Source: an uncultured virus (IMG/VR IMGVR_UViG_3300026549_001681) (lineage: Duplodnaviria > Heunggongvirae > Uroviricota > Caudoviricetes). Taken from it: DNA of 64,000 nt. The notes under the pieces were generated by a model. The model made no database searches. It saw only the letters and a program-made list of their open reading frames with translations, and was not told where the DNA came from. Within the stretch, counting starts at the first letter, position 1; every line of letters starts with the position of its first letter. The position numbers were made by a program, and so were the translations under genes. Location of the stretch: the IMG/VR virus record IMGVR_UViG_3300026549_001681; one strand, written 5' to 3'. Below, one piece after another: positions 17,310-64,000 of this stretch.

Positions 17310-19205
17310 TTATGCCGCCTTTTTACGCTTTTTCTTCGGTGAAAAGTTCACCAGGTCAAGCTCGGACTGAGATACAAAGTAGTAAGTCGATTCGAGCTTT
17401 CCTATCTCAACATCGTCGAGCAGCTGACACTCATCTTCATCAAACTCGGTAACTACCTGACGTTTGGCATTAACATATTTCTTTCCGGTCTTCTTGTCGA
17501 ATGCCGTATATTTAAGAAGCGGTTCCCAAGAACTGTCCGTAAATATGTTGGTCTTCTCGTCATTGATGGGATTCTCACCGCGGATGACGATAATGACTCT
17601 GTCATTTTTCAAGTGCAATATCTCAGACGGATCCAGAAGCTCTCTCTTTATCCTCTGTTCAGACTCGGAAGTAGAACCCTGTCTGCCTTTGCTTTGTGAA
17701 TTATTCTTCGTATCAAGAGTATAAGAACCCAAGAGCTCAGAGATATATTTGGCAGAGTCCATACCGCTGACACCCAAGGACATCAGGGTATCGCAGCCTT
17801 CAATGGCGATGTTCCATTCTTCCTGTTTATACAGCGACTTGAGCTGTGCCAACGACTGAATGATGATAGAAGCCGAGACGTTTCTTGAACGCATTGATGT
17901 CAAAACGTGCAGGAAGTTATCCGGCAGTTTGATGTTGAAGAACTCGTCCATGAGGATCTCGACGTGGACGGGGAGAGGGCCTCTGTAAATCTTGTCTGCG
18001 ACCGTGAACAGTGTATTGAACAGCTGTGAATAGAAGATTGAGACGATAAAGTTCAATGATGTATCCGTATCAGATACTACAAGGAACACCGCTCTCTTTC
18101 TGTCGCCCAAAGTACCGATGTCCATGTCGTCGAAACGCGTCAGTCTTATGAGTCCGTCGTTATTAAACGAAGACAATTTCGAGTTCAGTGTCGAGGCGAC
18201 GTCCTTCTTAACATTGGACGAACCTGACGCATATTCCTTCCAATACCTTACGGCAATGTGGTCAGGGTTCTTTTCCTTCAGAGCATCAAATATCGGATCT
18301 GCTTCTGTCGGAGCCGAAGCCTGCATAGGCGAACCGGTAACGACACAAGCCTTACGCTTGATCTCCATTACCGCTGCAAAGTTCTGTGATGCCTTCGGAT
18401 ATTCGAAATAGACATAGTACATTATCGCAAGGAGAACTGCCTTAGCCGAATTTTCCCAGAACGCATCCTGCTTGGCCTGCGAACCGTTGTCAGTAGCAGA
18501 AAAGATAGCATCAACAAGGTTTTCAATGTCTCTCTGATACTCTTCTTCACGGATATACTGGAACGGGTTATAACCATCCGATTCATCAAACTTGGTAAGA
18601 TTGAGTACGGTAATGTCATAGCCTAATTCTTTCAGCCTGTTTCCGACCGTATCAAGATGCTCACCTTTAGGATCGACGTCAATTATCGTACAACCGGCAT
18701 TAAGAAGTTGGGGCCACGCATAACCTGTCGTCTTACCTGTACCGGGAGCACCGAGAACGATAACATTGGAGTTTCTGTTGATCGCCTTGTTGTCGTAAGA
18801 GAGAGCAAAGTTCTTGGACAGTATCTTGTTGTAGTTTGCTCCTTCTATCTTTATCTCATCGCCGTAACGGTTCGTAGTGATAATGTCTTTCTGGTTTCTG
18901 TAATGCTGGTCGAGTTTTTCGACATCGCCCCAATCGGCGGTACCGTGTTCTTCGCCCGGCCTTGCATTTGATACGAGGGATACTACTACGAACATCACGG
19001 CTGCATAAACGAGCAGTACGATAAAAGCCCATTTGAAAGACGGCCACAGATCGTTCAGGTAGATCTCAAGGGAAGGAGAGAAGATGGTACCGAAAATGCC
19101 ATTGTATTCCAGATCCTGCCCTAAGCCGAAACCCAACATAAAAATAAAAGGTGCCAGGAACAGAGCAAACTTGATATACGCTTTTCTGCGTTTGTTATTC
19201 TGCAT
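17310..19205 (-). CDS. virD4: VirD4/TraG coupling protein
   Basis: Two N-terminal TM helices, EHGTADWG, Walker A GAPGTGKT, DPKGE, YNPF, FWE, LMDEF, QSLAQL. Confidence 0.95.
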   Translation of the reverse strand: MQNNKRRKAYIKFALFLAPFIFMLGFGLGQDLEYNGIFGTIFSPSLEIYLNDLWPSFKWAFIVLLVYAAVMFVVVSLVSNARPGEEHGTADWGDVEKLDQHYRNQKDIITTNRYGDEIKIEGANYNKILSKNFALSYDNKAINRNSNVIVLGAPGTGKTTGYAWPQLLNAGCTIIDVDPKGEHLDTVGNRLKELGYDITVLNLTKFDESDGYNPFQYIREEEYQRDIENLVDAIFSATDNGSQAKQDAFWENSAKAVLLAIMYYVYFEYPKASQNFAAVMEIKRKACVVTGSPMQASAPTEADPIFDALKEKNPDHIAVRYWKEYASGSSNVKKDVASTLNSKLSSFNNDGLIRLTRFDDMDIGTLGDRKRAVFLVVSDTDTSLNFIVSIFYSQLFNTLFTVADKIYRGPLPVHVEILMDEFFNIKLPDNFLHVLTSMRSRNVSASIIIQSLAQLKSLYKQEEWNIAIEGCDTLMSLGVSGMDSAKYISELLGSYTLDTKNNSQSKGRQGSTSESEQRIKRELLDPSEILHLKNDRVIIVIRGENPINDEKTNIFTDSSWEPLLKYTAFDKKTGKKYVNAKRQVVTEFDEDECQLLDDVEIGKLESTYYFVSQSELDLVNFSPKKKRKKAA

Positions 19206-21678: not shown

Positions 21679-22503
21679 CTAAACACCACGTCCCGTAAAC
21701 TCTTCGAGATTTCTGTCTTTTTTTGATTCGACAGGGGAGAGGGCTGCAAATCCCTTATCCTTTGTCTCTGACGCCTTAGCAAAATCAAAAAGGCCTTCGA
21801 GACTTCTCTTTATACGGGACAGTTTTACAAATCTTCCATCCTTTAATCTGACATAATTCTTTCCGCAATACTTAATATCATGTTTGGCAAGGTTTTCTTT
21901 CAATGATTCGACATCTAAACTTGCCATTCTGCACTTAACAAGAATGTCTTCGAGCCCCGGATAGTCAACTGGGGGTCTTTCATTCTGTTTCGGTACGGTA
22001 AGGTCATATTTGTAGCAAATGAAATCTGCTATGTTTTTGAGTCTGTAATAATTCTTTTCGTTATGTGCAGCCTTGTGACCATCAACATAAGACACCGAGT
22101 TGACAAGTAAATGGCAGTGAAGAGTCTTGGTATTGGTGTGCACGGCCAAAAGCACCTGGAACTGGCTGCCCCACATCTCTTCGGCGATTTCTCTTGCAAC
22201 AGAGAGCACATTGACCGGATCAAGACCGTCAGTGTCGGGGAAGGAGACAAAACCGTGATAAGCAAGCACACCGTCCATCTTGTCAAATTTCTTCTTTACA
22301 TCCATAAACTCATTGATAGCCGTCTTGGGATTACAGTTGATACCTTCTATCAACTTTGCATCTTCAAGCTCGACCATCTTGTCTGCAACAGGCACACCAC
22401 GGGGCATTGCTACCTCGTCATAAGCGGTCTTGAGCGGGTTTATATCATAGGCAGCTACATTCGCCATATTGCTCTTGACCGGCCAGAGTTTCGTTACAGC
22501 CAT
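21679..22503 (-). CDS. MOBP-type relaxase, C-terminus EEFTGRGV
   Basis: MAVTKLW..Y..NPLKT, GINC, LAYHGFVSF, HTNTKTLHCHLLVNSVS (HUH). Confidence 0.92.
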   Translation of the reverse strand: MAVTKLWPVKSNMANVAAYDINPLKTAYDEVAMPRGVPVADKMVELEDAKLIEGINCNPKTAINEFMDVKKKFDKMDGVLAYHGFVSFPDTDGLDPVNVLSVAREIAEEMWGSQFQVLLAVHTNTKTLHCHLLVNSVSYVDGHKAAHNEKNYYRLKNIADFICYKYDLTVPKQNERPPVDYPGLEDILVKCRMASLDVESLKENLAKHDIKYCGKNYVRLKDGRFVKLSRIKRSLEGLFDFAKASETKDKGFAALSPVESKKDRNLEEFTGRGV

Positions 22504-22510
22504 ATATTCC

Positions 22511-23428
22511 TTACCCCACAGTGCGCTCGACACGCACGAATTGTCTTATTACGAGGTCATGATCGACTTCGTTTATCTTGTCCTGTGCAACCGTAACAGC
22601 AGCACCTTTGCACTCGCATCCTGCGGCAATGACCTTGCTTCCGCAGAAGATCATGCCTTCACATAACTCTTTGTTGTCCGATATGAATATCGACCTATTC
22701 TTTCCAATGCAGACAGGCAGCAGAGAAAACTCTTCGCATCTGTAAACTTCTCTGTATCGTTTAAGTTCGGCAATATTCATCATTTCACCGGCACTGCAAG
22801 GACCGGCTTTTACAACGACAGGCCTCAAGCCTTCTCCGGCGATCCTGTCAACGATCCCGAAGTCTTTGTCATAAAGAGCTTTGTCTATTGCGACAACGAT
22901 ACGGAAATCCGATAACTTATTCAGAGCCGTAATGTAAGCGTCTGCCACGTCAGGATATTTCTTTTTCAAAGCAAAATCCGCAAGAGGATTTAACTTTGAC
23001 GTATCAACACCGTTCTTGTCAGCCCATTTATTGTTTTCCAGCACGAAGCAACGCTCTCCGTAAACGATTACCGGGACATCACTAATTCGGGATAAAAAGC
23101 AGTTAGGCTGAGCCGTCGGAGCAAGCGCGGCAAAGCAATTTACTGCTCCTTCATTCTTATTGGCAAAGGCAATAAGATGATCCAAAAGAACGGCACCGTT
23201 CTTGTTCGGAACAAAATGATCCACGAGATGTCCTCTCCAGGCAACACGGATCGCCTTAGCAAGAGCTGTAACATCACGATATGCACCTGAATACTTCCTG
23301 CCGGATGCTGCAAAGTATGCTTCGACACGGTCCGGTGTGACTTCAGACACATCTGTCACAACCCAAGGTGACATCATCTCTTCAGGCGTAAGTTCCCGGG
23401 ACGGCTTATACCAATCATTAGCTGACAT
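22511..23428 (-). CDS. Hypothetical protein
   Basis: Long ORF directly upstream of relaxase, GGAGG RBS. Confidence 0.7.
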   Translation of the reverse strand: MSANDWYKPSRELTPEEMMSPWVVTDVSEVTPDRVEAYFAASGRKYSGAYRDVTALAKAIRVAWRGHLVDHFVPNKNGAVLLDHLIAFANKNEGAVNCFAALAPTAQPNCFLSRISDVPVIVYGERCFVLENNKWADKNGVDTSKLNPLADFALKKKYPDVADAYITALNKLSDFRIVVAIDKALYDKDFGIVDRIAGEGLRPVVVKAGPCSAGEMMNIAELKRYREVYRCEEFSLLPVCIGKNRSIFISDNKELCEGMIFCGSKVIAAGCECKGAAVTVAQDKINEVDHDLVIRQFVRVERTVG

Positions 23429-41846: not shown

Positions 41847-41929
41847 TTGAATTCCTCCTTGTTTAGAGTGTGATATATTTTCCAAGTTTCACTTGAAACA
41901 AATTAAAAAAGCCCCGCAAGATACGGGGC

Positions 41930-48371: not shown

Positions 48372-48384
48372 GTTCTTTTCTCCT

Positions 48385-51839: not shown

Positions 51840-51921
51840 ATCTCCTTTACCTTGTATGAAACAATTCCATGTTTTCCTGTGTAACGATGCCTCGTTCGAG
51901 AGCCCATTTGTCGAGCCACTT

Positions 51922-52086: not shown

Positions 52087-52099
52087 AGTATTTTCTCCT

Positions 52100-52708
52100 T
52101 TATGCTCTGCCCATTGAAGTAGCAGTTAACTCACACAGTTGCTGATATATCCTTCCGGCTGAAAAGAGCAGTTCGTTGTCATCGAACATCTCGGCTTTCT
52201 GGTCTGAAAAATAGTCCATTAACGGGCTTATTCCTCCGAGCTCCTGATTTGCTGTGCCATCAAGAACCCGGTGTATCAGATAGCGAACCTCAGATCTTTC
52301 TGCCACACAACGCTCAAGTGTCGTCGAGTCTGCCTCGCGGTAACGATCATTACGTTCTAAGACTGGAGCGATCCAGCGGATCCGATCTGCTTTTGGGACA
52401 TCATATTCGCCACGCAAATACATAAAAGTTTCAATTTCGTTTGCAAGTTGTGCAAAGGGAGAAGAAGTAACATATTTTCCGTCTAACAGGTCTCTTGCAA
52501 AGGCCTTCAAATCATTGGTGTCAACAATCGACGGACGACTAAAATACTTAACCACGTTCTGCTGAATCTCCGATTTATCATCTTCGCTAAGAATATACGG
52601 AGTCTTGTTGTGTATTTCATGGTTCTGTTTGCGTATGTCAACTTGCCTTTTGACATATTGTTGAACAGTTTCTTCTCGGTGGGGAGCAATGGAAAAATAA
52701 CTCAACAT
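52100..52708 (-). CDS. Hypothetical protein, C-terminus MGRA
   Basis: AGGAGG RBS, 202 aa. Confidence 0.7.
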   Translation of the reverse strand: MLSYFSIAPHREETVQQYVKRQVDIRKQNHEIHNKTPYILSEDDKSEIQQNVVKYFSRPSIVDTNDLKAFARDLLDGKYVTSSPFAQLANEIETFMYLRGEYDVPKADRIRWIAPVLERNDRYREADSTTLERCVAERSEVRYLIHRVLDGTANQELGGISPLMDYFSDQKAEMFDDNELLFSAGRIYQQLCELTATSMGRA

Positions 52709-52723
52709 AAACCGACGCCTCCT

Positions 52724-53563
52724 TTATTGACTCCTGCCATTGTTCAATGTGATTGTTGGTGGGATGAAGGTCTTTGCTATATGACCTACAATGTCCACAT
52801 AACTTAAGTACGCGCTGAGCTCCATGTAACAACCCTTGTCAGAGTGCATCGGTCCGTCGGTCGGAACACAAAGACTGCAACTTCTGGCACCTCTTCCGGC
52901 GTACGCATACGCTTCGTCAGGAAGCGCCTTCGGGTAGAGATAACCCTGGTATTTCATTTCCTGTGCGATCTTTACAAGTTCATCTCTGCAATCTTTGGAT
53001 AGCGAAAAAGTATTCTCGATAGAAAACTGCTTTTTCTTAAACCCGATGTCTGTTACATCCAAAGCCAGATAGAACGGGGACACACTGAGCTGTGAAGTAA
53101 GAAATCCGTCTAACTCGGCTGCGCCACGCATACCGCTTTCCTCGTTCCCGGTAAAGGCGACAATGACATTATCCGGCAGGGCGCCTGTCATCATGAGATA
53201 TAATGCTGCGGCATTAGTTGCTGAGTTATCAAAAGTACCGTGCAACATATTGTCTGTGGCAGAGACTTGGACAAACGGTTTTCTTATATTCTTAACGAAA
53301 TCTATATGTGTCGATATGACCAGAAGATTTTCACGGGGCAGGGAAGACAGAGACATTTTTGAATAGAGCCTTACCAACTTGCCTTGCAGACCGTGCTGAT
53401 AATATGGTGTTTTAGCAAGCAGCTGGTGGATCCTGTCGAGCTTCGCCGTCTCAGTAAACTTCTTTCCGTTGTCATAGCAAGGTCGTTGCATCTCCTGGAG
53501 AACATACAACTTGTTTTGAACTTGCTTCGTATAATCGTCCACAGAATAGCTCCTTATAATCAT
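52724..53563 (-). CDS. M28/M42-like Zn peptidase, C-terminus GRSQ
   Basis: STHID, GTFDN, FTGNEESGMRGA, LDVT, MHS. Confidence 0.75.
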   Translation of the reverse strand: MIIRSYSVDDYTKQVQNKLYVLQEMQRPCYDNGKKFTETAKLDRIHQLLAKTPYYQHGLQGKLVRLYSKMSLSSLPRENLLVISTHIDFVKNIRKPFVQVSATDNMLHGTFDNSATNAAALYLMMTGALPDNVIVAFTGNEESGMRGAAELDGFLTSQLSVSPFYLALDVTDIGFKKKQFSIENTFSLSKDCRDELVKIAQEMKYQGYLYPKALPDEAYAYAGRGARSCSLCVPTDGPMHSDKGCYMELSAYLSYVDIVGHIAKTFIPPTITLNNGRSQ

Positions 53564-53769
53564 CTGTATCTCGGAAATTCCATTGTTAATCCTTTGTCGC
53601 TGAGATACTGTTCGAGTTTGTCGTAACTGTCCGAAGCACAGAGTCCGTGGTCCTTGATAAACACATCAAGGGTAACGCCTTCGTAGTGTTTGGAATCCAT
53701 GTCATGCCAATGCTCGCGAAGTTCTATAAGCCCCCATAAAGAAGGTGAGATAAGGTCTGAGATAGTCAT
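53560..53769 (-). CDS. Hypothetical protein
   Basis: 69 aa, coupled to the peptidase gene. Confidence 0.55.
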   Translation of the reverse strand: MTISDLISPSLWGLIELREHWHDMDSKHYEGVTLDVFIKDHGLCASDSYDKLEQYLSDKGLTMEFPRYR

Positions 53770-53779
53770 AAAAATGAAC

Positions 53780-54073
53780 TCATCTTATTCTGCCGTGTTT
53801 AGACATAAGTTCCTGACAGATAGACTCAAGATCAAATATGGGAGAAGCATGTTCCTCGTCAGTACATAACCATTCGGCAATTCTATCTGAAGCCCGATCG
53901 GCATCGTTTGAATCAACAAATCGCCCGATAGTCACGGTGGGATTATTGGAGCTGGTACCGACACTCCTGACGGCAAACCTCTTGTAATCAGAGCCGTCGA
54001 TAGAATCTATCGAGATGTCGAAAACATTGTCCATGTTCACGATGGTGCTGCCATATCTGATGTATCTGTTCAT
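53780..54073 (-). CDS. Hypothetical protein, C-terminus HGRIR; paralog of 58923
   Basis: AGGAGG RBS. Confidence 0.7.
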   Translation of the reverse strand: MNRYIRYGSTIVNMDNVFDISIDSIDGSDYKRFAVRSVGTSSNNPTVTIGRFVDSNDADRASDRIAEWLCTDEEHASPIFDLESICQELMSKHGRIR

Positions 54074-54107
54074 AATATTTCCTCCTGGAATTTAATATTT
54101 CTTGTGT

Positions 54108-54566
54108 TTAGGCTCTGCCTTGACGTGATGCTATGAATTCATCGAAGCGCTTCTTTTCATCTTCCAAATTGCCTATGTATCCATAGTCACGCTGGTATGC
54201 TTCGATCTCTTCTAACGTGAAGAGCTTTTCCATAACGTGGGGGGAAATGCGATAAGCAGGATAAGTCACAAATCCGCTTGTTTTCTGACCTCCGATAGGG
54301 AAGGCGAAGCAATTATCCTGTAAGAACTGCTCTACACGAGACTCGTTGTTAACGTCAGGAAAGAAGCAGCCGTATTGTCCGACAAACTCACCGAAGCTCC
54401 TGGTGAGATCTGTATAATATTCACCGTCCGGTGTTTCAAGCCAAAGACCAATCAAGTGCTTTTCTTCGCCCCTCCAATCGGCAACACCGTAGAAACCGCC
54501 TTTGAGAAGCAGTTCAGTGTCATCGTATCTAACCTTGATGGAATTTCTTTCTTCGCTCATTGACAT
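54108..54566 (-). CDS. DUF4313-like protein, C-terminus QGRA
   Basis: GEYY.DLT, DVNN..EQFL..N, SGFVTYP.Y. Confidence 0.7.
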   Translation of the reverse strand: MSMSEERNSIKVRYDDTELLLKGGFYGVADWRGEEKHLIGLWLETPDGEYYTDLTRSFGEFVGQYGCFFPDVNNESRVEQFLQDNCFAFPIGGQKTSGFVTYPAYRISPHVMEKLFTLEEIEAYQRDYGYIGNLEDEKKRFDEFIASRQGRA

Positions 54567-54579
54567 ATCCTCCCGAAAT

Positions 54580-54742
54580 AAAAAAGCCCCGCAGCAATGC
54601 GAGGCAATAAAAAAGCAGGGAAGATAAGTTCTGTCCCTGCGTACTATGTTAAGTATATTGTATCTTATAATAGTGAATTTGCAACTTTCGGCATAAAAAT
54701 CACCTTATTTGGGAAATAAGCCTCTTTTTCGGAATATTTTAC
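54580..54742 (-). promoter_or_regulatory. Conserved box + promoter + tandem leader terminators, copy 5
   Basis: Box 54696-54715, TTGCAA-16-TACAAT, two hairpin/T-run terminators at 54580-54641. Confidence 0.8.
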
Positions 54743-54768
54743 CCGGGAAGAGCGGGTGAGAGGGGGCG

Positions 54769-55788
54769 TTACTCATCAAATCTCACCACATTACGATGCT
54801 CTTCTTTCCGTTTATCAGAAAAACTTGCATAGTGGTTTTTCGTAGTTGATATATCCTGATGTCCCATGTTTTCCGCGACAAGATATATGTCGCCTGTTTC
54901 CTCATAAAGCCTGGTCGCAAAAGTAGCCCGGAGCTTATGAGGAGTAATGTGTTTTCCGGGAAGGGAAGATGCAGCGTATTTTTTCACGAGACGCTCGATA
55001 CTCCGCACGGAAAGTCTCTTTTTCTGACTGGAAACGAATAAGGCTTTTTCATTCTCATCAAGACCTTCCAGATTATTACGCCAGTCGAGATAGTCGACAA
55101 GGTAAGGAGAAGCCTCGTCCGAAAAATACACGATGGACTCGTTGCCGCCTTTTCTGGTGATGTAAATACAGGAGCGGTTCAAATCAACGTCGTCGATATC
55201 CAGTTCAGAGCACTCAGACACACGGATTCCGGAAGACAAAAGCAAATAAACAATGGCGAGGTCACGGATTGACTGGATCTCGTAGTATTCGCGTTCTTTC
55301 TGTGTCATAGATCTGTGACCGTGAACAGCTGACAAAAAACAAGAAGTCTCATCCTTATCCATCTTGATTATGGGCTTCTTGGGACATTTCGGCTGCGGTA
55401 TCTTGCCGACCTCGTATGTCGAGATCAGGTCATTCTTGAATAAGTAATTAAAGAAAGATTTAAGGGCAGAGAGTTTTCGTGACAGGGAACGGCGGTCATT
55501 GGAAACCTCACCCTTGTCCGACTCGTAGTGTTCCAGATATTCGAGATAATCTTCGAAGTTCTCCTTACGGAGTTTTTCGAGATCAGACAAATCAACCTCG
55601 TCAAGAGAAAATCTGTCAGAAACATAATCCAGGAATTTTTTTATGTCGAGTGTGTATTCGTAATTTGTTCTCGGCGAACTTCTGTGATGGATCGCACGGA
55701 TGTACGACCTGACATAAGATGGCAAAGTGTCAAGCATCGCGTTACATTTGTCCTGGTATCTGATCTGAACCTGTTTGTGTCCGCTCAT
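54769..55788 (-). CDS. XerC/XerS-like tyrosine recombinase
   Basis: RKLSALKSFF.YL, RDLAI..SGIRVSE, RKGG, ITPHKLRATFAT.LY, GH.DI.TT..HY. Confidence 0.92.
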   Translation of the reverse strand: MSGHKQVQIRYQDKCNAMLDTLPSYVRSYIRAIHHRSSPRTNYEYTLDIKKFLDYVSDRFSLDEVDLSDLEKLRKENFEDYLEYLEHYESDKGEVSNDRRSLSRKLSALKSFFNYLFKNDLISTYEVGKIPQPKCPKKPIIKMDKDETSCFLSAVHGHRSMTQKEREYYEIQSIRDLAIVYLLLSSGIRVSECSELDIDDVDLNRSCIYITRKGGNESIVYFSDEASPYLVDYLDWRNNLEGLDENEKALFVSSQKKRLSVRSIERLVKKYAASSLPGKHITPHKLRATFATRLYEETGDIYLVAENMGHQDISTTKNHYASFSDKRKEEHRNVVRFDE

Positions 55789-55823
55789 AGTTAAAAATCG
55801 GTCCTTTCTGAAAGAGGTGTCAC

Positions 55824-55859
55824 TATCTTGTCGTTTAACACGTATTAAGCGACAAGATA
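55824..55859. promoter_or_regulatory. dif-like recombination site
   Basis: 15-bp arms TATCTTGTCGTTTAA / TTAAGCGACAAGATA (1 mismatch) around a 6-bp spacer CACGTA, just upstream of the recombinase. Confidence 0.75.
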
Positions 55860-55972
55860 ACCCTTATTCCCGACAACAGAGATCGTTCGTATCCTGCTCT
55901 GCATCATTTGAACCAAATAAAAAGCGCCTCGTTTCATCAACAAGGCACTTAAAATCGGCTGAAACCCTTGAT

Positions 55973-56593
55973 TTATAAGGGCTTTTTCTTCCAAAGTCCG
56001 AATATGGACCTAACATAAGAATTCTTCTCCTTGTCGAGTTCATTTTGGATTCTGACCTTTTCTTCGGCCAACGAATTCTTTTCCGCTTCCAATCTGGCTT
56101 TCTCTCTGATCCAGTCGGTCTTTTCCTGCTCCAAGGCGCTCTGCTTCTCTTCGAGCTGTTCAACCCGGGCGGCTTTTACTTCAAGCACCGCGACCTTGGC
56201 AGTAAGCTCTGCGTCTCTATTTTCAAGGCTTTCCTTAGTGGCAGTAAGCATTTTGAGTTGCGTCTGAGCCTCTATTCCGACCTTGTTCTCTTCTTGTAAA
56301 TTAAGGAGCTGGTCCTGAAGCAGTGCGATCTTTCTTAAAAGTTCTTTGTTCTCTGACTCAAGCTGCTCATTTCTTTCCGTCTTACTCTGTATCTCTTCTC
56401 GCGAACTTACTATGGCAGCTGACGAAGACGATCTGTGCTCATCCAAGTAAGCAACGGCATAGTCATCAAGGAACCTGGTCCTGTACTGTGACATGATGTG
56501 TCCTTCAAGAGCATCCTTGTGCTTATCAACCTGTCTTCTGACACACTCATAAGACACTCCTCGTTGTGTTGCATAATCACTAAATGAAAGCAT
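55973..56593 (-). CDS. HTH + long coiled-coil DNA-binding protein (pSK1 Par/KfrA-like architecture)
   Basis: SDYA.QRGVSYECVRRQV HTH, ~130-aa heptad region, FGLWKK end. Confidence 0.65.
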   Translation of the reverse strand: MLSFSDYATQRGVSYECVRRQVDKHKDALEGHIMSQYRTRFLDDYAVAYLDEHRSSSSAAIVSSREEIQSKTERNEQLESENKELLRKIALLQDQLLNLQEENKVGIEAQTQLKMLTATKESLENRDAELTAKVAVLEVKAARVEQLEEKQSALEQEKTDWIREKARLEAEKNSLAEEKVRIQNELDKEKNSYVRSIFGLWKKKPL

Positions 56594-56609
56594 TGTCTCT
56601 CTCCTTACT

Positions 56610-56860
56610 CACAAATCATTGTGTTATTTTGCGCTATATATGTGTGTCTTTCACAACACTATGACACAACCATAACATAATCGCAAAAGTATTGCAATTA
56701 CAAGGCGGTGTCAAAGTGGCACAACTTCTAACACACACAACTTGTGCCACGATTTTGTGAGCATATAGGATCAGTGATTGTGCATCGGACACAAAACAGA
56801 GTGCAACAAAATCAGTTTCACAACACTGTCGCAAAACTTGTGCCTGACGCACACAACTTG
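56610..56860. repeat. Large CACAAC/GTTGTG motif array
   Basis: Many CACAAC/CACAA/TTGTG copies directly upstream of the HTH-coiled-coil gene. Confidence 0.8.
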
Positions 56861-57907
56861 TTATGGATAAGAATGACCTTCCATGTCGATGCCTCTCTCT
56901 CCGAAAACGACACTGATGGCCTCTAACTCCTCGTAACCGTACTCCATCTGACGACGAATCTCATAACCGAGCTCAAGAGCATCCTCTTCACCAATCTTAT
57001 ATTTATCTCTAATGTACTCTGCGGTACAACAAGCCTCATAATAACTGTGAAGTTCTACCAGCTCCCCGGTGCTCAGTTTTACTCCGTTTACAGTAACGTC
57101 AAACAGTGTCTTGTCACTGATATTTACCTCGGTTATTGGTGTGTTCTCAGGAGGAACTTGTTCTGTCGAATTAACAAGACTGTGTTCCATTAACTGAGAA
57201 AGTGTATACTTCTCAGTCATTATTTTCTGAAGATAAACAATAGCTTCTACAACCTCATTCTCTGATTTTTTGAACGAGTCACCACCAGTCATCCAGATCT
57301 GCATAGGCAACTCGTTCGAAGATGTAGCCAGGCCAAGGCAGATCTTGGCGGCATACGCCTGTCCTGCAAGATAACCCTGTTTATACTCCGCCGACCACGA
57401 TGTTGACTTGACAGTGTCCGTATTGTTCCGAATCGCATTGACCGCTTCAACCAGATAATATTTGACAGTTGCCTTAAACTGAGACTGCCTTTCTGCCGTC
57501 TTTATTTCCTCGTAAAACATCAATAAAGCATCGGAACATTCGTTAACAAACCCTTCCTCATAGGAAGTAGGACCATACTTTTCAGCAGCTTCAGATTTCA
57601 GATTTGCCCATCGCTCAGCACTTCTCTTGATATTTGAAAGTAACTCAGTACAAGGAAACCTGTCAACGTCCTGTGCCTTAATGTCGCTGCCAAATCGTCC
57701 AAGAGAGTTTGTAAAGTCCGCTAAAGTAGCAATGTCATTTCCGTCAATGTCAGGTGATACTACCGAGACATAACCCATAGTGGAATCATCAGGCGAATCC
57801 GATGATACACGCACCATAGCATCGTAACGACGGAACAATAATGCTATTCTTTCTTCCGCGTTCTTGATATCCTTGTAAGGCTTTAAGAAAAAGTTGATCT
57901 TGCTCAT
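56861..57907 (-). CDS. Modular hypothetical protein
   Basis: GGAGG RBS; SYEEGF, EYKQGYLAG modules. Confidence 0.75.
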   Translation of the reverse strand: MSKINFFLKPYKDIKNAEERIALLFRRYDAMVRVSSDSPDDSTMGYVSVVSPDIDGNDIATLADFTNSLGRFGSDIKAQDVDRFPCTELLSNIKRSAERWANLKSEAAEKYGPTSYEEGFVNECSDALLMFYEEIKTAERQSQFKATVKYYLVEAVNAIRNNTDTVKSTSWSAEYKQGYLAGQAYAAKICLGLATSSNELPMQIWMTGGDSFKKSENEVVEAIVYLQKIMTEKYTLSQLMEHSLVNSTEQVPPENTPITEVNISDKTLFDVTVNGVKLSTGELVELHSYYEACCTAEYIRDKYKIGEEDALELGYEIRRQMEYGYEELEAISVVFGERGIDMEGHSYP

Positions 57908-57924
57908 AAGTACACCTCCAAAAC

Positions 57925-58458
57925 TTATCTTCCGATCATACTGTCACAAATTATTACGCCATCGGAACAGGCTGCATCATAAATGCGCTGTCCATCCTCA
58001 TCCGGCGAATACATTTCAAGAAACGTATTGAAGGTCGATGCTTGAGTCAGCATATCGTTCCGGTGTTCTTCCCAGAACTTAAGAAGCCAAGCCGCAGGCA
58101 CAACGAAGTTGTCTTCAGCTATGACATCGCCGGCTTCGTTATATGTGTTATGTTTATTGAGTTCGTATTCACATTGGATACGACTGATTTCTTTGTGAGA
58201 AAACGCAATTCCGGACGCTAAGAGAAATTGTGTCACCGTAAGATATTCGTCAGACGGACTAAACAATAATGACAAAGTAGAAAGAACATTAGCATCTGAC
58301 AATGTTTTCGGAGCAACTCGTTCCAATCTGTCCTGCTCGCGGAAACTTAATGATCTTTCCAGCAGAAACACTTCATGATATTTCCTGGCAAAATCCTCTT
58401 CACCCGGAAATGTCGCAACCTGGTGTAAAACCTTTATTTCTATATCGGTCATAATCAA
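57925..58458 (-). CDS. Hypothetical protein, C-terminus IGR
   Basis: 177 aa. Confidence 0.7.
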   Translation of the reverse strand: MIMTDIEIKVLHQVATFPGEEDFARKYHEVFLLERSLSFREQDRLERVAPKTLSDANVLSTLSLLFSPSDEYLTVTQFLLASGIAFSHKEISRIQCEYELNKHNTYNEAGDVIAEDNFVVPAAWLLKFWEEHRNDMLTQASTFNTFLEMYSPDEDGQRIYDAACSDGVIICDSMIGR

Positions 58459-58910
58459 GACCTCCCTAACTGCTCAGCGATAGAATTCTGTATGGCAGTT
58501 ATAAGATGCGGAATATGTGTGTATTTTTGTCCGCCTTCCAAAGTATAAGCAGCCATTGTAAGATCTTCTGCGAGCCTGTTTAAGTCGCCCTTCTGGTACT
58601 CAACCAAGATACAGTTATACAATGTGTAAGATGGTTGTGTTGTGCTCGGCTCCTCACCTTTGTGAAAAAGACTTGCATCAATAGAAAAAGCCTTACTACC
58701 CTTATTGAGCATAAAGTGGGCATTGTCGAATGTTCTATACATCTCTTGGGCAAGAGAAATCAATCGTTCAACATCAGCAGGCATCTGGAATCCGGCGATC
58801 ATGCAAGTTAGTTCGACGTATTTCTCCTTGGCAGATTCGAAGGCTGCGTTTTGCTTTTCTTCGTAATTAACATTGAATATAGTATTTCTGCGTTCCATTG
58901 TCATAGTCAC
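58455..58910 (-). CDS. Hypothetical protein, C-terminus LGRS
   Basis: 151 aa, GGAGG RBS. Confidence 0.7.
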   Translation of the reverse strand: MTMTMERRNTIFNVNYEEKQNAAFESAKEKYVELTCMIAGFQMPADVERLISLAQEMYRTFDNAHFMLNKGSKAFSIDASLFHKGEEPSTTQPSYTLYNCILVEYQKGDLNRLAEDLTMAAYTLEGGQKYTHIPHLITAIQNSIAEQLGRS

Positions 58911-58922
58911 CTCCGAACACGA

Positions 58923-59219
58923 TCAACTTTTGCCGCGAGCCGAATTAAGCTCAACACTCAAATGGTCCATATTGAAAATCCTTGTATCACCCTTGTTGAG
59001 CCAATCCCCAAACTCCTTAAAGGCCGTTTTAGCAACATCTTGAGAAGTAAAAAAACCGACACGTTCGGGTTTGCCATCGTATTCGAACCCCAACGACCAA
59101 CAGTTGCCTAAAGCCTCACCCGGCTCGATCCGGTCAGCAGCCTTTTCAGGCGGCATAAGATATATTCTGTCAGCCTTATCAACATTCAATAATTGTCCGT
59201 GATAAAAAACAAAAGCCAT
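58923..59219 (-). CDS. Hypothetical protein, paralog of 53780
   Basis: Y.G..(L/V)N.D...G.F...WL...IF pattern. Confidence 0.7.
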   Translation of the reverse strand: MAFVFYHGQLLNVDKADRIYLMPPEKAADRIEPGEALGNCWSLGFEYDGKPERVGFFTSQDVAKTAFKEFGDWLNKGDTRIFNMDHLSVELNSARGKS

Positions 59220-59222
59220 ATT

Positions 59223-59747
59223 TTAAGACCTCCCTCTGTTACAGCACTGTTCCCAAAGAGAGCAAAGTTCACTGTATCGCATATCGCTGTTGTTTCCGTA
59301 AAAAGGCTTCTCATAGTCAAAGTCTTCATATCCACAAGCCTTGAGGTCAGAGATCATCTTTTCAGAGTTCTGTCTGCGATCGAACTTATCATCTGTCTGT
59401 TCCAATTCTTTTAGTGTCAGGCCAAACTTGTCCAGATACTCTTGCGTGCAAGAACCGTCCTCGACATCAACTGTTACATAGAATTCCGCTATGTCACACA
59501 ACGTAGGATCATCTAACTCACTATCAGCACGCTCTGTCAGAAAGTTCTTGATCTTATCATCGGAATCCAATCTGGTGATTACCGCTTCAGAACTGTTGCT
59601 TCCGCCGAAAGGCCAGAAAGATACCCACGTCTCATCATCCAGTGTGAGCTGACGCCCGCGTGCGCTCATCTGACGCTGGATCTCTTCTCCCGTAAACAAC
59701 CAGCGGTATTCGTGTCCGTAGTGAGTCTGCATTACTCCGTAAACCAT
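59223..59747 (-). CDS. Hypothetical protein, C-terminus RGRS
   Basis: Start MVYG after GGAGG. Confidence 0.7.
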   Translation of the reverse strand: MVYGVMQTHYGHEYRWLFTGEEIQRQMSARGRQLTLDDETWVSFWPFGGSNSSEAVITRLDSDDKIKNFLTERADSELDDPTLCDIAEFYVTVDVEDGSCTQEYLDKFGLTLKELEQTDDKFDRRQNSEKMISDLKACGYEDFDYEKPFYGNNSDMRYSELCSLWEQCCNRGRS

Positions 59748-59761
59748 ATTCACCTCCAAAT

Positions 59762-59823
59762 AAAAAAGCCCCGTCAAAAACAGGGCAATAAAAAACGCAG
59801 AAACATCATCTCTGTCTCTGCGC
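59762..59823 (-). terminator. Tandem intrinsic terminators
   Basis: Same layout as 54580-54641 (hairpin-TTTTTATTGCC-hairpin-TTTTTTATTT). Confidence 0.7.
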
Positions 59824-59845
59824 TAAATCTTTAAGAAACATAGGG

Positions 59846-60052
59846 TTAACAGAACCTTGCAGCCATAGCTGCATTAGCATAAGCCATCTTTCTGAACCTT
59901 GTAATGTACTTATTAGCCTCGCCCTTGGTACTGCCTTCAAACTTCGGAAACGCATCGAAGCGATATTCTTCCATGGTGCGTATAAAATCAGCCTGCTTTT
60001 CTGTCATCGGCTCTTTCATCCAAGCCTTTGCGTCAACAACGAGTTCCGACAT
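59846..60052 (-). CDS. Hypothetical protein
   Basis: MTEKQ..FI...TKGEA..YI motif; AGGAGG RBS. Confidence 0.65.
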   Translation of the reverse strand: MSELVVDAKAWMKEPMTEKQADFIRTMEEYRFDAFPKFEGSTKGEANKYITRFRKMAYANAAMAARFC

Positions 60053-60079
60053 AACAACCTCCTGAATAACAGAGGTTTG

Positions 60080-60220
60080 CACACAAGGTTATTATCGCGA
60101 AAATATGTTCTTAACACAACAGTTGTGAGGTGTTTTTGAGAAAATTTGTTCGTCACAACCAAAACAGTCACAACGAATTTTGTGTTGTAACAACATTTGA
60201 CACAAACAGTTGTGACAACT
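60080..60220. repeat. CACAAC/GTTGTG motif cluster
   Basis: CACAACAGTTGTG, CACAAACAGTTGTG and further CACAAC copies. Confidence 0.75.
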
Positions 60221-60624
60221 CAATATATAAATCCGGCTCCTGCAAACATACCCGCACAAGTCAGGTCGAACACGACACGGAGATCGTCTAAAACATACGC
60301 CTTCTGATTGTGTTCAAGTCTCTGAAGCTCGTCTTGTCTAATCGTTGTCCAACGGTTCCTGGTTATCTCGGAACACTTATCCGTGTCAAGAGTAAAGAAA
60401 TGCACGGCAACGTCATTTATGGCGCTGCATATCATGTTGAAACCGGTATCCGCATCGATGCTTCCGTTGTCCCAGAGCCACAAAAACAGGACATTTATGA
60501 TCTGCTCTGCATAATCGTGAAACGGATCACGGGCACTGAGGTTAACGTATTGGGCACAACTCTCATACAACTTCTTTGTAAACGAGTCCGCCTTTGACAA
60601 AACTTCTGCATAATAGTCAGGCAT
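60220..60624 (-). CDS. Hypothetical protein
   Basis: 134 aa, AAAGGA RBS. Confidence 0.65.
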   Translation of the reverse strand: MPDYYAEVLSKADSFTKKLYESCAQYVNLSARDPFHDYAEQIINVLFLWLWDNGSIDADTGFNMICSAINDVAVHFFTLDTDKCSEITRNRWTTIRQDELQRLEHNQKAYVLDDLRVVFDLTCAGMFAGAGFIY

Positions 60625-60730
60625 AAGAATATCCTTTCACATTGGGGATAAGCGGGAGTTTTCGGGACGGTCACAACAACATTGTGTCAGACACAATCAT
60701 TACTCGCAACCCGCTATAACAAACAAATAA

Positions 60731-61024
60731 TCAACTTTCCGTAACTCCGGTAAGATCATCTTTTTTCAGTTGCTCCATAAAAGTCAGCTCGTAAAACTCG
60801 GTGCATCGCCACATCTTTACGACGCGTCCTGTATAAGCGTCAGGAGCGTCTCCGACAGCCGAGACTAACTTTTCCTTGGCAAGTTCTATCAAACGCAGAG
60901 AGACGGCATTACAGCCCGTATCAGCGTCGCAACCGCGTGCTTTCATTTCCTGACCTATCTGCATGGCAGATAACGGACCTTGCTCCTTTAACACGGTCAG
61001 AATGAGTTTGTCAAAATCAGACAT
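60731..61024 (-). CDS. Winged-helix DNA-binding protein
   Basis: IL.VLKEQGPLSA.QI..VS.RL.EL..LV..TGR. Confidence 0.65.
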   Translation of the reverse strand: MSDFDKLILTVLKEQGPLSAMQIGQEMKARGCDADTGCNAVSLRLIELAKEKLVSAVGDAPDAYTGRVVKMWRCTEFYELTFMEQLKKDDLTGVTES

Positions 61025-61037
61025 TGTAAGAACCTCC

Positions 61038-61130
61038 TTAGAAGCCGAAGATGAGTTTTACGCATCCGAATACCACAAGCGTCAAACCTAAAGCCAGTAA
61101 AACGAGCATTGTCATAGTTCTTTTGCTCAT
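61038..61130 (-). CDS. 30-aa membrane peptide
   Basis: MSKRTMTMLVLLALGLTLVVFGCVKLIFGF, AGGAG RBS. Confidence 0.5.
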   Translation of the reverse strand: MSKRTMTMLVLLALGLTLVVFGCVKLIFGF

Positions 61131-61332
61131 GACAAGGTCTCCTTAAACTTTGTGGCCGAGCGGACACTTGCCCGCCTGAATGGCGCGAAGGCAAGGAAGC
61201 TGCATCTCGGTACAAATGGACAATCCGCCCAAGACCTGATGTTTCGGGCAATGCTTTACGGCATCGTTTACTATATAGCGCTGATCCCGTCTGGTGATCT
61301 TGCCGAGTTCCGGATTTTCAGGAATAGTCATA

Positions 61333-61839
61333 TCAGTTACCTCCTCTGCCAAGCGTTTCCCTTATAGCAGCTTCAAGGGCTCCGTCTGTTAAGAGCTTGT
61401 CAGATGTAAAACGCGGAGTATGAACACCGCTGCCACTCTCATGAATGAAAGTTATCCAAACATTAGCACCATTACACTCCGGCACGAAGTTATCGGGATA
61501 GCCATGCTCCGTAAGGCTCTCTTCGTCGACTCGAAATCCGACGAGTTTTGTAGCAGGATCCATAATCATAGAATAAAAGCGATCATCACGGTCAATATCA
61601 GAAAACTCTCCGTCACCAATATAGTCAAGGCCTGCGTCAAGGCATCGGTACATGACATGGTCCTGCCATTGTCCGGAAAGTTCACCGTTTTTGTGAGTGA
61701 ACTCGTCACGTCCCTGAGACTCAACCTCAAGATAATTACCGTCCGCAGTCTGAAAGATCAGGTGATCCAAGCAAGTAGGAAAGACGTCGTCTTTTTGTAC
61801 CGTGATGTTAGTTTTAAGTGAATAATCTACATTTCCCAT
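61333..61839 (-). CDS. Hypothetical protein, C-terminus LGRGGN
   Basis: Start MGNVD after GGAGG. Confidence 0.7.
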   Translation of the reverse strand: MGNVDYSLKTNITVQKDDVFPTCLDHLIFQTADGNYLEVESQGRDEFTHKNGELSGQWQDHVMYRCLDAGLDYIGDGEFSDIDRDDRFYSMIMDPATKLVGFRVDEESLTEHGYPDNFVPECNGANVWITFIHESGSGVHTPRFTSDKLLTDGALEAAIRETLGRGGN

Positions 61840-61870
61840 AGTAATTACCTCCAAATACAAGTGATTTTCC

Positions 61871-62437
61871 TTAATTATTTACCACACCGCCTCGGAAATG
61901 TTTGGCCAAAATTCTGATGATGTCGTAATATTCCCGGACACCCTCACCGGAACGCATTAGGTCATTAAGAGCTGTTACGACGGCGCCGGTCTTCTCGGTC
62001 ATAATCTCGCAGTAAACGGACAAAACCTCGTTAAGAGTGCTTGCCACGTCTTTCTTAACTTTGACAGAACCCGAAGCATACTCCTTCCAGTATCTAACTG
62101 CGATATGGTCAGGCTTAAGAGTTGCAAGCGCGGAAAAGATCGGATCAGCTTCGGTAGTACCGTCAGCCTTGATATCCGTAGCCTTATCAACGAGTTCGAA
62201 TACTTTGTCATAATTCTTCTCATGCTCAGCAAGCTCAAAGTAGACATAATACATAGCGGCTAACATCAAGCACTTAGCTGCATTTTCCCAGAAAGGATCA
62301 ACTTTGTATTGGTCATCCATGCCGTGATCTTCACCGTATGAATGAACCATTTCAAAAGCTACACCGACCTCGGTCTCGATATCTCTTTGGACTTCGTTCT
62401 GTCTTACGAGTGCAAACGGGTTATAGTTACATTTCAT
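61871..62437 (-). CDS. Stand-alone VirD4 all-alpha-domain paralog
   Basis: Aligns by eye to this element's VirD4 from YNPF to KKDVASTLN; no TM helices or Walker motifs; GGAGG RBS. Confidence 0.85.
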   Translation of the reverse strand: MKCNYNPFALVRQNEVQRDIETEVGVAFEMVHSYGEDHGMDDQYKVDPFWENAAKCLMLAAMYYVYFELAEHEKNYDKVFELVDKATDIKADGTTEADPIFSALATLKPDHIAVRYWKEYASGSVKVKKDVASTLNEVLSVYCEIMTEKTGAVVTALNDLMRSGEGVREYYDIIRILAKHFRGGVVNN

Positions 62438-62460
62438 TTTGGAAACCTCCTTATGGTTTG

Positions 62461-62901
62461 TCATTCTTCCAGGTGCCAGATACCGTAGTCGATCTCATCT
62501 TGCACTTCCTGATTAGTCTTATTTCCACCTTTCTTGCGGTTACAGCGCCAGCAAAGGCACTGAAGGTTATCTATGTCATTACCGCTCCCGCCACGCTTTA
62601 CAGAGCGAATATGGTCTGCTTCCAAGAGCAGATAGTCGCCCAGGCCCGGACAGAGATCTTCCAGGAAGTCCCTGGAGATACCGCAGATCTGGCATGTGTA
62701 ATTGTCTCTTTCAAAGACCGCCTCTTTGTCGGAACTCCGAATGTATCGTCTCTGTGAGAGCTCTCGCTGTTTTTGTTTTTGTCTCCGTATGCTTCTTCTG
62801 AGCCATTTATACCGGAAGAAGATGACAAGCAAAGCAACGGCAACAATTACAAGAAGCAAGGCCTTAATTTTCGGATGTGAAGTCAATCTGTCTAAACTCA
62901 T
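62461..62901 (-). CDS. Membrane-anchored HNH endonuclease
   Basis: N-terminal TM helix; RDNYTCQICG, DHI..GG.N.DNLQCLCWRCN..K. Confidence 0.85.
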   Translation of the reverse strand: MSLDRLTSHPKIKALLLVIVAVALLVIFFRYKWLRRSIRRQKQKQRELSQRRYIRSSDKEAVFERDNYTCQICGISRDFLEDLCPGLGDYLLLEADHIRSVKRGGSGNDIDNLQCLCWRCNRKKGGNKTNQEVQDEIDYGIWHLEE

Positions 62902-63692
62902 AGGCTATGATTCGACCACCAGGGCTTTTTACCGTGTAGATGCTTTGAGATGTAATATGCACCTGACACAATACTGTCATCATCTGTAAGACCGTATTGA
63001 GAGAATAAAGTCAGAACCAGCTCCTCCAGAGGCCGCTTTTCGGGATGGTATTTGGCATCGTAAGCGTCATTTTCGATCCAATGGATCGCAGTTGGATCCT
63101 TTCTGACCGCAATCATTGCTTGGCAGACCTCGTAGAGCTCAGAGTGTTTGAAGAACCGTTCTTGACAACAACGGCTTATTTCTTTAACTAAACCTTCCGG
63201 CATAGTAAAATTCTCCAAAGCAGAGTCTTCTGGTGTCTTTTCAGCCTCTTCGGGTTCGATCTCATCAAAAGGAACAGGACCTTTCGGATACTCTTCCGTT
63301 TCAAAATAAGTGTCTTTTTTGCGTCTGCGGTACGCACCGTAATAATTGCCGAGGAATTCGTTGTATTTGACAAAGTAATAAGCAAGCTGTGGAGCCTTGT
63401 CAAAAACTTCGTCAATCAAATCTGACCAATAAGGAACACCGTGAAGCGTGCTTTCGTAGGAGAAAGAGAAACGTTCCGGATATTTGGCATACTCATTCTT
63501 GTTATTTGCATCTATGAAATCGCGAATAAACGACATAGAAGATTTTAACCCTTCATAAACTATGTCCTCATAATGAGTAACATGGCTGGTACCGGCTTGA
63601 CCGATAGCTATTTGTTCAGTTTCTGATGAAGGCTGCGTGGCGTCTGGCAATGTATCAGAGTTCATCTTGTTTCGTTTCGAATGATTAAACAT
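62898..63692 (-). CDS. Hypothetical protein
   Basis: 264 aa, GAGGAG RBS. Confidence 0.7.
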   Translation of the reverse strand: MFNHSKRNKMNSDTLPDATQPSSETEQIAIGQAGTSHVTHYEDIVYEGLKSSMSFIRDFIDANNKNEYAKYPERFSFSYESTLHGVPYWSDLIDEVFDKAPQLAYYFVKYNEFLGNYYGAYRRRKKDTYFETEEYPKGPVPFDEIEPEEAEKTPEDSALENFTMPEGLVKEISRCCQERFFKHSELYEVCQAMIAVRKDPTAIHWIENDAYDAKYHPEKRPLEELVLTLFSQYGLTDDDSIVSGAYYISKHLHGKKPWWSNHSL

Positions 63693-63716
63693 TGTATCTC
63701 CTCTCTTATCAAGAAG

Positions 63717-64000
63717 TTAAGTCTTTTTGTATTCGTTCTCAAGGCACTTAAGCAGGTACGAATCCAGGTTCTTTATCTTGTCTTTGGACAAAGTCAACGC
63801 TTTATGCTGCACAGCATTAAAAGTAAGCGCTCTTTCGTCCAAGTCGTCATACGGATAGTAAACTTGTGATGCTGCATCGAAAGCAACTATACCTCTGTCT
63901 GTAACACGCTCATCAGCATATTTCCTATAACGGTCTATGACTTCTCTGTGTTCGACATAAAAAGAGCAGATCTCGTCGTAATCGACAATGTCTTCTTTTT
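63717..64000 (-). CDS. Partial hypothetical protein (5' end outside the window)
   Basis: Open frame near the window edge ending LENEYKKT*. Confidence 0.5.
   Translation of the reverse strand, partial: KEDIVDYDEICSFYVEHREVIDRYRKYADERVTDRGIVAFDAASQVYYPYDDLDERALTFNAVQHKALTLSKDKIKNLDSYLLKCLENEYKKT

Follow-up and report, generated by a model that had tools for sequence, protein, structure and literature searches.

The DNA analysed here is a stretch of 64,000 nucleotides (hereafter the window) recorded in IMG/VR as an uncultured virus of the Caudoviricetes (IMGVR_UViG_3300026549_001681). It is a conjugative element of the Gram-positive type with all of its genes on the minus strand, and encodes, among others, two tyrosine recombinases, a VirB4-like ATPase, PrgI, the coupling protein VirD4, a MobP relaxase, a sortase, HipA-C and NADAR. 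The part of a coupling protein that decides what the conjugation machine exports is its all-alpha domain (AAD). In a preliminary description, made from the sequence letters, a small gene lying 43 kb away from virD4 was taken to encode a free-standing duplicate of this domain. Full-text searches of the literature returned no description of a natural stand-alone AAD gene. We describe here the gene (Table 1), its family and its surroundings.

The free-standing gene and its match to VirD4

In its longest form, the open reading frame (ORF) spans 61871..62464 (-) and encodes 197 amino acids (aa). Position 62437, the end coordinate in the preliminary description, is an internal ATG corresponding to M10 and, judged from the sequence, almost certainly the true start: this Met is common to 31/31 database homologues, a related locus (L005) has AGA at the position of the longer 62464 start, and the ribosome-binding site (RBS) that had been claimed for the gene is present as a Shine-Dalgarno (SD) sequence AAGGAGG 8 nt before the M10 codon. 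Read from M10, the protein has four residues before the YNPF motif with which the AAD-homologous segment opens. A promoter and terminator scan of the region gave signal at background level only. Contigs from four RNA-library runs gave zero cover over 61867-62433, with the flanks of the gene covered by 90-99% variants; as such contigs cannot show the absence of transcription, the zero cover is uninformative about expression of the gene.

The match to VirD4 that had been placed at about 18170-18575 was recovered (Table 1). BLASTP against the VirD4 of the window aligned ORF residues 14-151 with VirD4 residues 212-347 (76/143 identities, 53%; E 4e-43), and the motifs YNPF, QRDIE, FWEN, MYYVYFE, EADPIF, PDHIAVRYWKEYASGS and VKKDVASTLN are all present in both proteins (7/7). 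Profile-profile comparison with hhalign matched family columns 4-143 to VirD4 211-348 (probability 99.7%, E 8e-26). The match is confined to the part of VirD4 that Walker A (GAPGTGKT) and Walker B (MDEF) enclose, and the protein is thus without a transmembrane (TM) region and without Walker motifs, in line with the preliminary description. Relative to a complete type IV coupling protein (T4CP), the alignment shows the AAD to be present, but as a separate polypeptide; the nucleotide-binding domain (NBD, with Walker A and Walker B) is absent, and nothing corresponds to the N-terminal TM domain, in that no part of the protein aligns to VirD4 1-210 (alignment; no TM predictor was run). The coincidence of the gene boundaries with those of the domain also held up, since they match the range given by hhalign as well as the AAD ranges in solved T4CPs.

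The full-length VirD4 matched Pfam PF02534 (T4SS-DNA_transf, E 2e-57) and PF12696 (TraG-D_C, E 7e-29) as well as the NCBIfam model "VirD4-like, CD1115 family" (387 bits). The free-standing ORF matched no Pfam family at E<=0.1, PF02534 included, gave a partial match to NCBIfam NF045973 (VirD4-like CD1115; 50 bits vs a cut-off of 250, model positions 90-225 of 442), and resembled no other family in Pfam, PHROGs or PADLOC. The ORF is confirmed as a free-standing paralogue of the AAD of the element's VirD4. Its last ~45 residues form a tail for which the profile-profile comparison gave no alignment to VirD4, as expected from the new C-terminus noted earlier.

An AlphaFold2 (AF2) model computed from a 43-row alignment was all helical, with a mean pLDDT of 82.5 and a pTM of 0.79. 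In the model, the last AAD helix runs on into the tail as a long helix (residues 134-171) followed by a second helix (177-189); pLDDT in the tail block falls from 89 to 67 and is below 50 just for residues 192-197. Foldseek against the PDB gave nothing at E<=1e-3, the best row being Cagbeta at E 0.68. When the model was aligned to 48,161 chains with VIA-align, three of the top four were coupling-protein chains, aligned over the AAD region. The AAD of Cagbeta was matched with Z 8.3 (6jho_D, 119 residues, rmsd 3.1) and 7.3 (8dol_A), DotL with Z 6.1 (7ovb_A) and TrwB with Z 4.3 over residues 185-301 (1e9r_A), the published TrwB AAD comprising residues 184-297 (PMC7434980; publications are cited here by PMC number). 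Since Z values below about 13 are common among helical proteins, the structural match supports homology without proving it. The model supports a predicted helical-bundle fold like that of the solved coupling-protein AADs.

Table 1. Coordinates of the free-standing AAD gene, its parts and other features discussed in the text (positions are those of the window unless a locus is named)
Feature	Coordinates	Strand	Remarks
Free-standing AAD coding sequence (CDS)	61871..62437	-	188 aa counted from M10; stop 61871-61873
SD sequence AAGGAGG of the AAD gene	62446..62452	-	8 nt before ATG at 62437; read from sequence
AAD-homologous core	62012..62425	-	residues 14-151 of the 197-aa ORF; BLASTP, hhalign, VIA-align
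Family-specific C-terminal tail	61874..62011	-	46 residues; CE.MTE ... H.RGGV
Single-gene cassette (RBS + AAD CDS)	61856..62462	-	607 bp; fills variable slot
Full-length VirD4 coupling protein	17310..19205	-	631 aa; putative parent subfamily of the free AAD
virD4 part matching the AAD gene	18165..18572	-	tblastn and BLASTP coordinates
HNH endonuclease (upstream neighbour)	62461..62901	-	146 aa; Pfam PF01844 E 2.1e-10; PHROG HNH families
p175 (downstream neighbour)	61333..61860	-	likely start ATG 61839; ends ..TLGRGGN
MobP-type relaxase	21679..22533	-	284 aa; ends ..FTGRGV; Pfam PF03432 1.6e-31; NCBIfam TraI/MobA(P)
Surface protein	32877-41885	-	3002 aa; nine TQ-ester-bond domains and a SpaA-like domain
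Sortase near the surface protein	29959-30702	-	
GR-tailed ORFs, part 1	4857-5228, 21679-22533, 29448-29966, 45911-46405, 47068-47988, 48000-48392, 48385-48780	-	
GR-tailed ORFs, part 2	48777-49499, 49649-49927, 49946-50290, 50407-50802, 52100-52708, 52724-53563	-	
GR-tailed ORFs, part 3	53780-54073, 54108-54566, 57925-58458, 58455-58910, 59223-59777, 61333-61860	-	
323-aa VirD4 NBD ORF	L011 (G125:C33) 1901-2872		between homologues of the HNH and 175-aa genes, in the AAD slot
417-aa protein: helix-turn-helix (HTH), AAD-less VirD4 NBD, zinc-ribbon-like Cys-rich end	L037 (G001:C82) 1306-2559	-	

Family members, selection and descent

In an exhaustive HMMER search, 1.84 billion representatives yielded 296 matches at E<=1e-3, the best 150 of which were listed; most of those listed are longer than 300 aa, with the matching stretch internal to the protein. 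Two clusters are free-standing. Cluster 1, to which the window's protein belongs, comprises 16 distinct sequences of 188, 190 or 195 aa, and cluster 2 comprises 15, 14 of them 199 aa long; 30/31 of the distinct sequences are full length. Members of cluster 2 are 33-36% identical to the window protein and align with it end to end, including the C-terminal tail (18/46 identities between the two subfamilies, with 47/136 in the core). The tail is hence common to both subfamilies, as are the residues conserved with VirD4 AADs. The samples that hold the sequence are ruminant-gut metagenomes (24 rows, 17 studies, two possibly the source of the window DNA).

Other searches yielded few further cases. 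A near-length word search gave two matches among 144 candidates and a profile search three among 6541. In GTDB species genomes, a peptide pattern hit 22 stretches and the sole relative was a full VirD4; eight loci were found in metagenome contigs, three with the free AAD gene and five with a full VirD4. PLSDB plasmids and IMG/VR gave no match. Searches for the second subfamily (P0008) in genomes of the order (301) and of the class (399) gave 0 matches, which, as no positive-control genome was included, does not show absence. Several short matches (P0010, P0012, P0014, P0018, P0020 and others) were rejected as stand-alone AADs; they turned out to be pieces of other VirD4 types, or chimeras of these, whose ends are unrelated or frameshifted. 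The ESM Atlas holds clusters of 161-183-aa "T4SS-DNA_transf" proteins that are either fragments or free domains. We also noted P0004 (246 aa, from a Logan assembly), in which a segment of the window VirD4 subfamily, from just before the AAD to about 30 residues past it, is followed by unrelated sequence; possible sources are a virD4 that was disrupted or rearranged in one of the samples, and chimeric assembly.

The narrow distribution (two clusters, ruminant-gut samples only) and the lack of an RNA contig over the gene would be expected of a neutral remnant of a partial virD4 duplication that stayed open by chance. Comparison of the free gene with virD4 over 133 codons, however, gave codon-position identities of 63/71/38%, with a non-synonymous proportion (pN) of 0.32 and a synonymous proportion (pS) of 0.83, beyond saturation. 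Within the identical 16-residue block PDHIAVRYWKEYASGS, 10/48 bases differ between the two genes and all differences are silent; one conserved Ser in the block is AGC in one gene and TCG in the other. Within the free lineage, the window and L005 differ over 126 codons by six synonymous and six non-synonymous changes (omega 0.25; binomial P 0.018 vs equal rates), an estimate that rests on 12 changes and hence on a small sample. The rate ratio that had been proposed as an indicator of a pseudogene is accordingly about 0.25 within the free lineage and not near 1. The intact variants (30/31) span subfamilies 35% identical that share the non-VirD4 tail, the start codon and the length, and the RBS is precisely placed. 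Given the synonymous saturation, the omega value, the second subfamily with its shared tail, the number of intact sequences and the boundaries that are those of the domain, the sequence comparisons support the view that the gene is under selection and is no random or neutral fragment; a neutral remnant is the least probable of the explanations we weighed and we regard it as highly improbable.

For a view of its origin, a maximum-likelihood tree of the AAD segment was built from 43 rows, 17 free-standing and 26 VirD4s (from the 150 listed matches, plus the window VirD4). Both free-standing subfamilies fall in a single clade (support 93/82) nested in a 100/99 clade that also holds the window VirD4 and the three VirD4s closest to it. 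Stem branches leading to the free forms measure 0.55 and 2.42 changes/column, vs 0.07-0.5 for those VirD4 tips. The simplest reading is a single origin from the window's VirD4 subfamily, with a tail gained and fast divergence afterwards.

A single-gene cassette in a variable slot

The gene order around the AAD gene was read from L004, a locus from a 271-kb metagenome contig that is 100% identical to window 51874-64000: a Rep_3 initiator is followed by a 264-aa protein (p264), an HNH endonuclease, the AAD gene and a 175-aa protein (p175). L005 is 96% identical to the window solely over 62061-62781, and its order is a different Rep_3-type initiator, a 111-aa ORF, an HNH gene with a different N-terminus and the AAD gene.

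Breakpoints on either side of the gene fall at the same two positions in four independent comparisons. A 228-nt contig from RNA run X21 joins 61855 to 62463 via five other letters, with more than 100 nt on each side, and thus skips 607 bp; in this variant the RBS and start of the 175-aa gene come immediately after the HNH gene, and the slot is empty. For a contig of genome G125 (C33, locus L011), homology to the window ends at 62457 and restarts at 61852. A contig of genome G001 (C91, locus L047) has 98% homology to the window from 61853 on and a DUF6273-like gene upstream instead, and loose contig ends occur in RNA run X19 at 61853 and 62504. A check for repeats flanking the cassette junctions found none. 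Homologues of p175 flank the slot in L011 (80% identity) and in the G001 contig (98% DNA identity), and the content of the slot among relatives is nothing, the AAD gene or a 323-aa NBD fragment. G001 has a VirD4 99.7% identical to that of the window and a 98%-identical 175-aa gene region with no free AAD (assembly 97% complete, 170 contigs). The free AAD gene is an accessory cassette, and the slot that it occupies is a hot spot for recombination within the replication module. In G001 (L047 1-940), the DUF6273-like gene in front of the 175-aa gene resembles window 51339-51944, which suggests recombination at gene boundaries, in this case at ~61853, with small genes between 45 and 62 kb shuffled as RBS-plus-gene cassettes.

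The alternative occupant of the slot, in L011, is itself derived from a coupling protein. The 323-aa protein aligns to VirD4 106-203 and 372-558 (E 1e-14) and matches Pfam PF02534 (34 bits vs a cut-off of 20), with ~25% identity to the window VirD4. It has no TM region, about 20 residues in place of the AAD, a lost Walker A (GAPGTGKT replaced by HNGVESQF) and LDQF for MDEF. In G001, the 417-aa protein (Table 1; PF12696 E 5.6e-12) has likewise lost Walker A and has kept MDEF; the protein may represent a regulator with a coupling-protein core. The gene adjoins a PT-rich lipoprotein gene, which is also found at L004 3-941, upstream of the Rep gene. The existence of these AAD-less, TM-less NBD paralogues, and the nearly complementary deletion boundaries (VirD4 106-203 plus 372-558 in the NBD, 211-348 in the AAD), would fit a split soluble coupling protein in which the free AAD complements an NBD of the 323-aa or 417-aa type in trans. 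However, the 323-aa NBD and the AAD alternate in one slot and are not neighbours, G001 has the 417-aa form and no free AAD, Walker A is lost in both NBD forms, and the identities to the window VirD4 (~25% for the NBD, 53% for the AAD) point to separate origins. We consider such a split protein quite improbable.

The same neighbourhood could be taken to mean that the helical domain was repurposed for a job outside conjugation, such as replication or maintenance of the excised element, or regulation. Consistent with this are the position of the gene in an operon running from the Rep_3 initiator through p264 and the HNH gene to p175, the evolution that sped up after duplication, the conserved tail unique to the AAD family, and, in a related genome, a protein in which an HTH and a zinc ribbon are fused to an AAD-less VirD4 NBD, suggestive of regulatory exaptation of VirD4 parts. 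Yet the conserved residues shared with VirD4 AADs persist in both subfamilies, the same HNH and p175 genes can flank an empty slot, and no likeness to other families came up in Pfam, PHROGs or PADLOC, making a repurposed domain distinctly unlikely in our judgement.

The adjacent HNH gene raises a further possibility, that of a defence or exclusion pair in which the AAD, as a specificity subunit, would sense a relaxosome on its entry, leaving the nuclease to cut the DNA. The two genes adjoin in two different upstream contexts, that of the window and that of L005, and the HNH protein, which has a hydrophobic N-terminal segment (a candidate TM segment read from the sequence), has weak PADLOC matches to restriction-type and ZorE-type HNH models. 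On the other hand, members of the HNH family greatly outnumber those of the AAD family (604 HNH clusters at E<=1e-5) and were found in 34/100 genomes of one genus and 0/201 other genomes of the order. Of the 24 HNH loci fetched (L011-L034), 23 lie in varied chromosomal contexts without an AAD, the other being the Rep-linked L011, and the X21 variant joins the HNH gene directly to p175. A dedicated pair thus appears to have only a slim chance of being correct.

A possible soluble receptor and the GR-ended proteins

Previous work bears on what a detached AAD might do. The isolated AAD of VirD4 is reported to be stable and to bind its substrate domain by itself (PMC8740702), AADs are described as recognising the cognate relaxosome or effectors (PMC7434980 and PMC13463995, both citing Whitaker 2015), and deletion of the AAD of TraJ-pKM101 abolishes transfer (PMC13463995). 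We propose, with a probability of about 0.4, that the free AAD acts in trans as a soluble receptor and vies with VirD4 for relaxosome or substrate signals, which would make it a modulator of transfer of the decoy type. The protein would keep the receptor fold without a membrane anchor or ATPase and would bind the same kind of ligand as the parental domain, be it the relaxase, an accessory factor or the C-terminal signals of transferred proteins; the MobP relaxase of the element is a candidate ligand of VirD4-type AADs. Binding in the cytoplasm, in trans, would titrate the ligand away from membrane-bound VirD4, since a soluble AAD lacking anchor and ATPase could bind a ligand but not pass it on. 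Transfer would be damped or biased as a result, most plausibly that of a co-resident rival element with a related coupling protein, or else that of the element itself. What the analysis establishes is the homology, the fold, the selection, the cassette and the other contents of its slot, whereas ligand binding, competition and target are what we infer here. The sequence context of the slot favours an accessory, interference-type role over a core role: because the cassette is dispensable, patchy and exchangeable with another crippled VirD4 fragment, a competitor at the docking step would fit best.

The proposed decoy has parallels among known inhibitors. CtiC of SGI1, which is similar to the MOBH12 TraI relaxase's C-terminal domain, is described as a free-standing relaxase-domain copy that acts as a decoy fertility inhibitor and competes with the full-length protein for a partner (PMC13635750). 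Like CtiC, the free AAD is a one-domain copy of a conjugation protein on a mobile element, and it is variably present among related elements; CtiC, however, mimics a relaxase and belongs to a Gram-negative system, so that the two are likened by logic, not by sequence. Fertility inhibitors aimed at coupling proteins are portrayed as fast-moving accessory genes, and PifC and Osa, whose target is the T4CP step, are patchy accessory genes of conjugative elements as the AAD gene is (PMC5696584). The likeness is one of patchy, slot-like distribution. PifC and Osa are not known to be derived from the coupling protein itself. The VirD4/TrwB-type AADs (TrwB of R388, Cagbeta, DotL and X. citri VirD4) share sequence homology and the helical fold with the free AAD, whereas the latter is encoded alone, without TM region or ATPase and with an extension of ~45 residues that is conserved; it is an accessory cassette that can be exchanged, not part of a transfer operon. 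In pIP501, T4CP functions are spread over separate polypeptides, TraJ with TraI (PMC7434980); split or TM-less T4CPs of this type, from Gram-positive systems, keep the ATPase and receive the membrane anchor in trans, whereas the free AAD is the receptor domain only and occurs beside a complete VirD4 in the same element.

Several observations weigh against a decoy. The gene sits within the replication-module operon, away from the transfer genes. The protein is 47% diverged from the AAD of its own VirD4 and has undergone accelerated evolution, so that binding of the parental ligand may have been lost. A pure decoy model offers no explanation for the conserved tail, which may hold the real novelty, for example in docking or oligomerisation or as a secretion signal. 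The family is very rare, with two clusters among 1.84 billion representatives, a rarity as compatible with a curiosity under weak selection as with a specialised weapon. Finally, no RNA-library contig covers the gene, and the flanking genes that are covered stem from variants without it.

The preliminary description had also referred to GR-tailed substrates, and such proteins are indeed a feature of the element. Gly-Arg occurs within the last six residues of 19/68 listed ORFs of the window, relaxase and p175 included, whereas each of nine control windows placed farther from the C-terminal end has 0-3/68. The tails take the forms ..GR, ..GRA, ..GRS and ..GRGV. An embedded SD sequence explains about four of 20 listed GR tails; for most, the varied Arg codons and a separate SD sequence after the stop rule out that the tail is just an embedded ribosome-binding site of the next gene. 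From its sequence pattern, the tail is a candidate C-terminal signal for export or recognition. The AAD protein itself ends in ..HFRGGVVNN, outside the last-six definition: in the free AAD family RGGV is conserved and then followed by 3-9 residues varying in length and sequence, whereas the GR tails end within 0-4 residues.

These proteins are the basis of the main rival, in which the free AAD is a positive adaptor or chaperone that binds GR-tailed cargo or the relaxase in the cytoplasm and hands it over to VirD4, with the tail as a docking or release element. The excess of GR tails, mostly not SD sequences, the position of the AAD gene inside an array of GR-tailed genes and the resemblance of the H.RGGV tail end to the GRGV end of the relaxase agree with such a role, and adaptor-assisted T4CP recognition is documented for Dot/Icm (PMC7251119, PMC8740702). 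However, related elements that lack the cassette still have GR-tailed genes and a VirD4 of 99.7% identity, so that the cassette is dispensable; VirD4 already carries an AAD of its own; and the AAD tail falls outside the GR definition. On balance we hold an adaptor to be unlikely. The same C-terminal H.RGGV, with its resemblance to the GR ends of the relaxase and 18 other proteins, might instead mark the free AAD as a type IV secretion system (T4SS) substrate, acting in an exclusion-like manner in the recipient on resident coupling proteins or on the incoming relaxosomes of rivals. Positively charged C-termini containing Arg and Gly are reported as T4SS signals in Agrobacterium VirF (PMC8740702), but the 3-9 variable residues trailing RGGV, vs 0-4 in the GR tails, do not match the pattern, and a transferred AAD seems improbable.

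Returning to the soluble decoy, a broader version of it is that conjugative elements of ruminant-gut Clostridia swap crippled coupling-protein cassettes at a hot spot beside their Rep_3/HNH genes, one with the receptor domain only and another with an ATPase domain that lacks anchor and receptor and has a degenerate Walker A. These would be mimics that interfere with type IV secretion or gate it, the free AAD being a soluble receptor for a ..GR(A/S/G) C-terminal signal, not noticed before, on the relaxase and about 18 small cargo proteins. This version is tentative and, as a whole, doubtful. The variable slot with its second crippled VirD4 fragment suggests that rival elements may compete at the substrate-docking step. 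Were the decoy or the adaptor correct, the protein could be the first coupling-protein-derived inhibitor or adaptor of transfer, a counterpart of the relaxase-derived decoy CtiC. A free-standing, apparently selected AAD would in addition be a ready-made tool to find AAD ligands in Gram-positive systems, for which the GR-ended proteins are a direct candidate set.

Two further observations concern other proteins of the element. The 3002-aa surface protein, encoded near a sortase gene (Table 1), is probably the mating adhesin. Among the GR-tailed proteins, the NADAR protein (45911-46405) and an unrelated-looking 306-aa protein (47068-47988), both on the minus strand, have the same last ten residues, EIPPEWLGRA, and their DNA is identical over the last eight codons compared.

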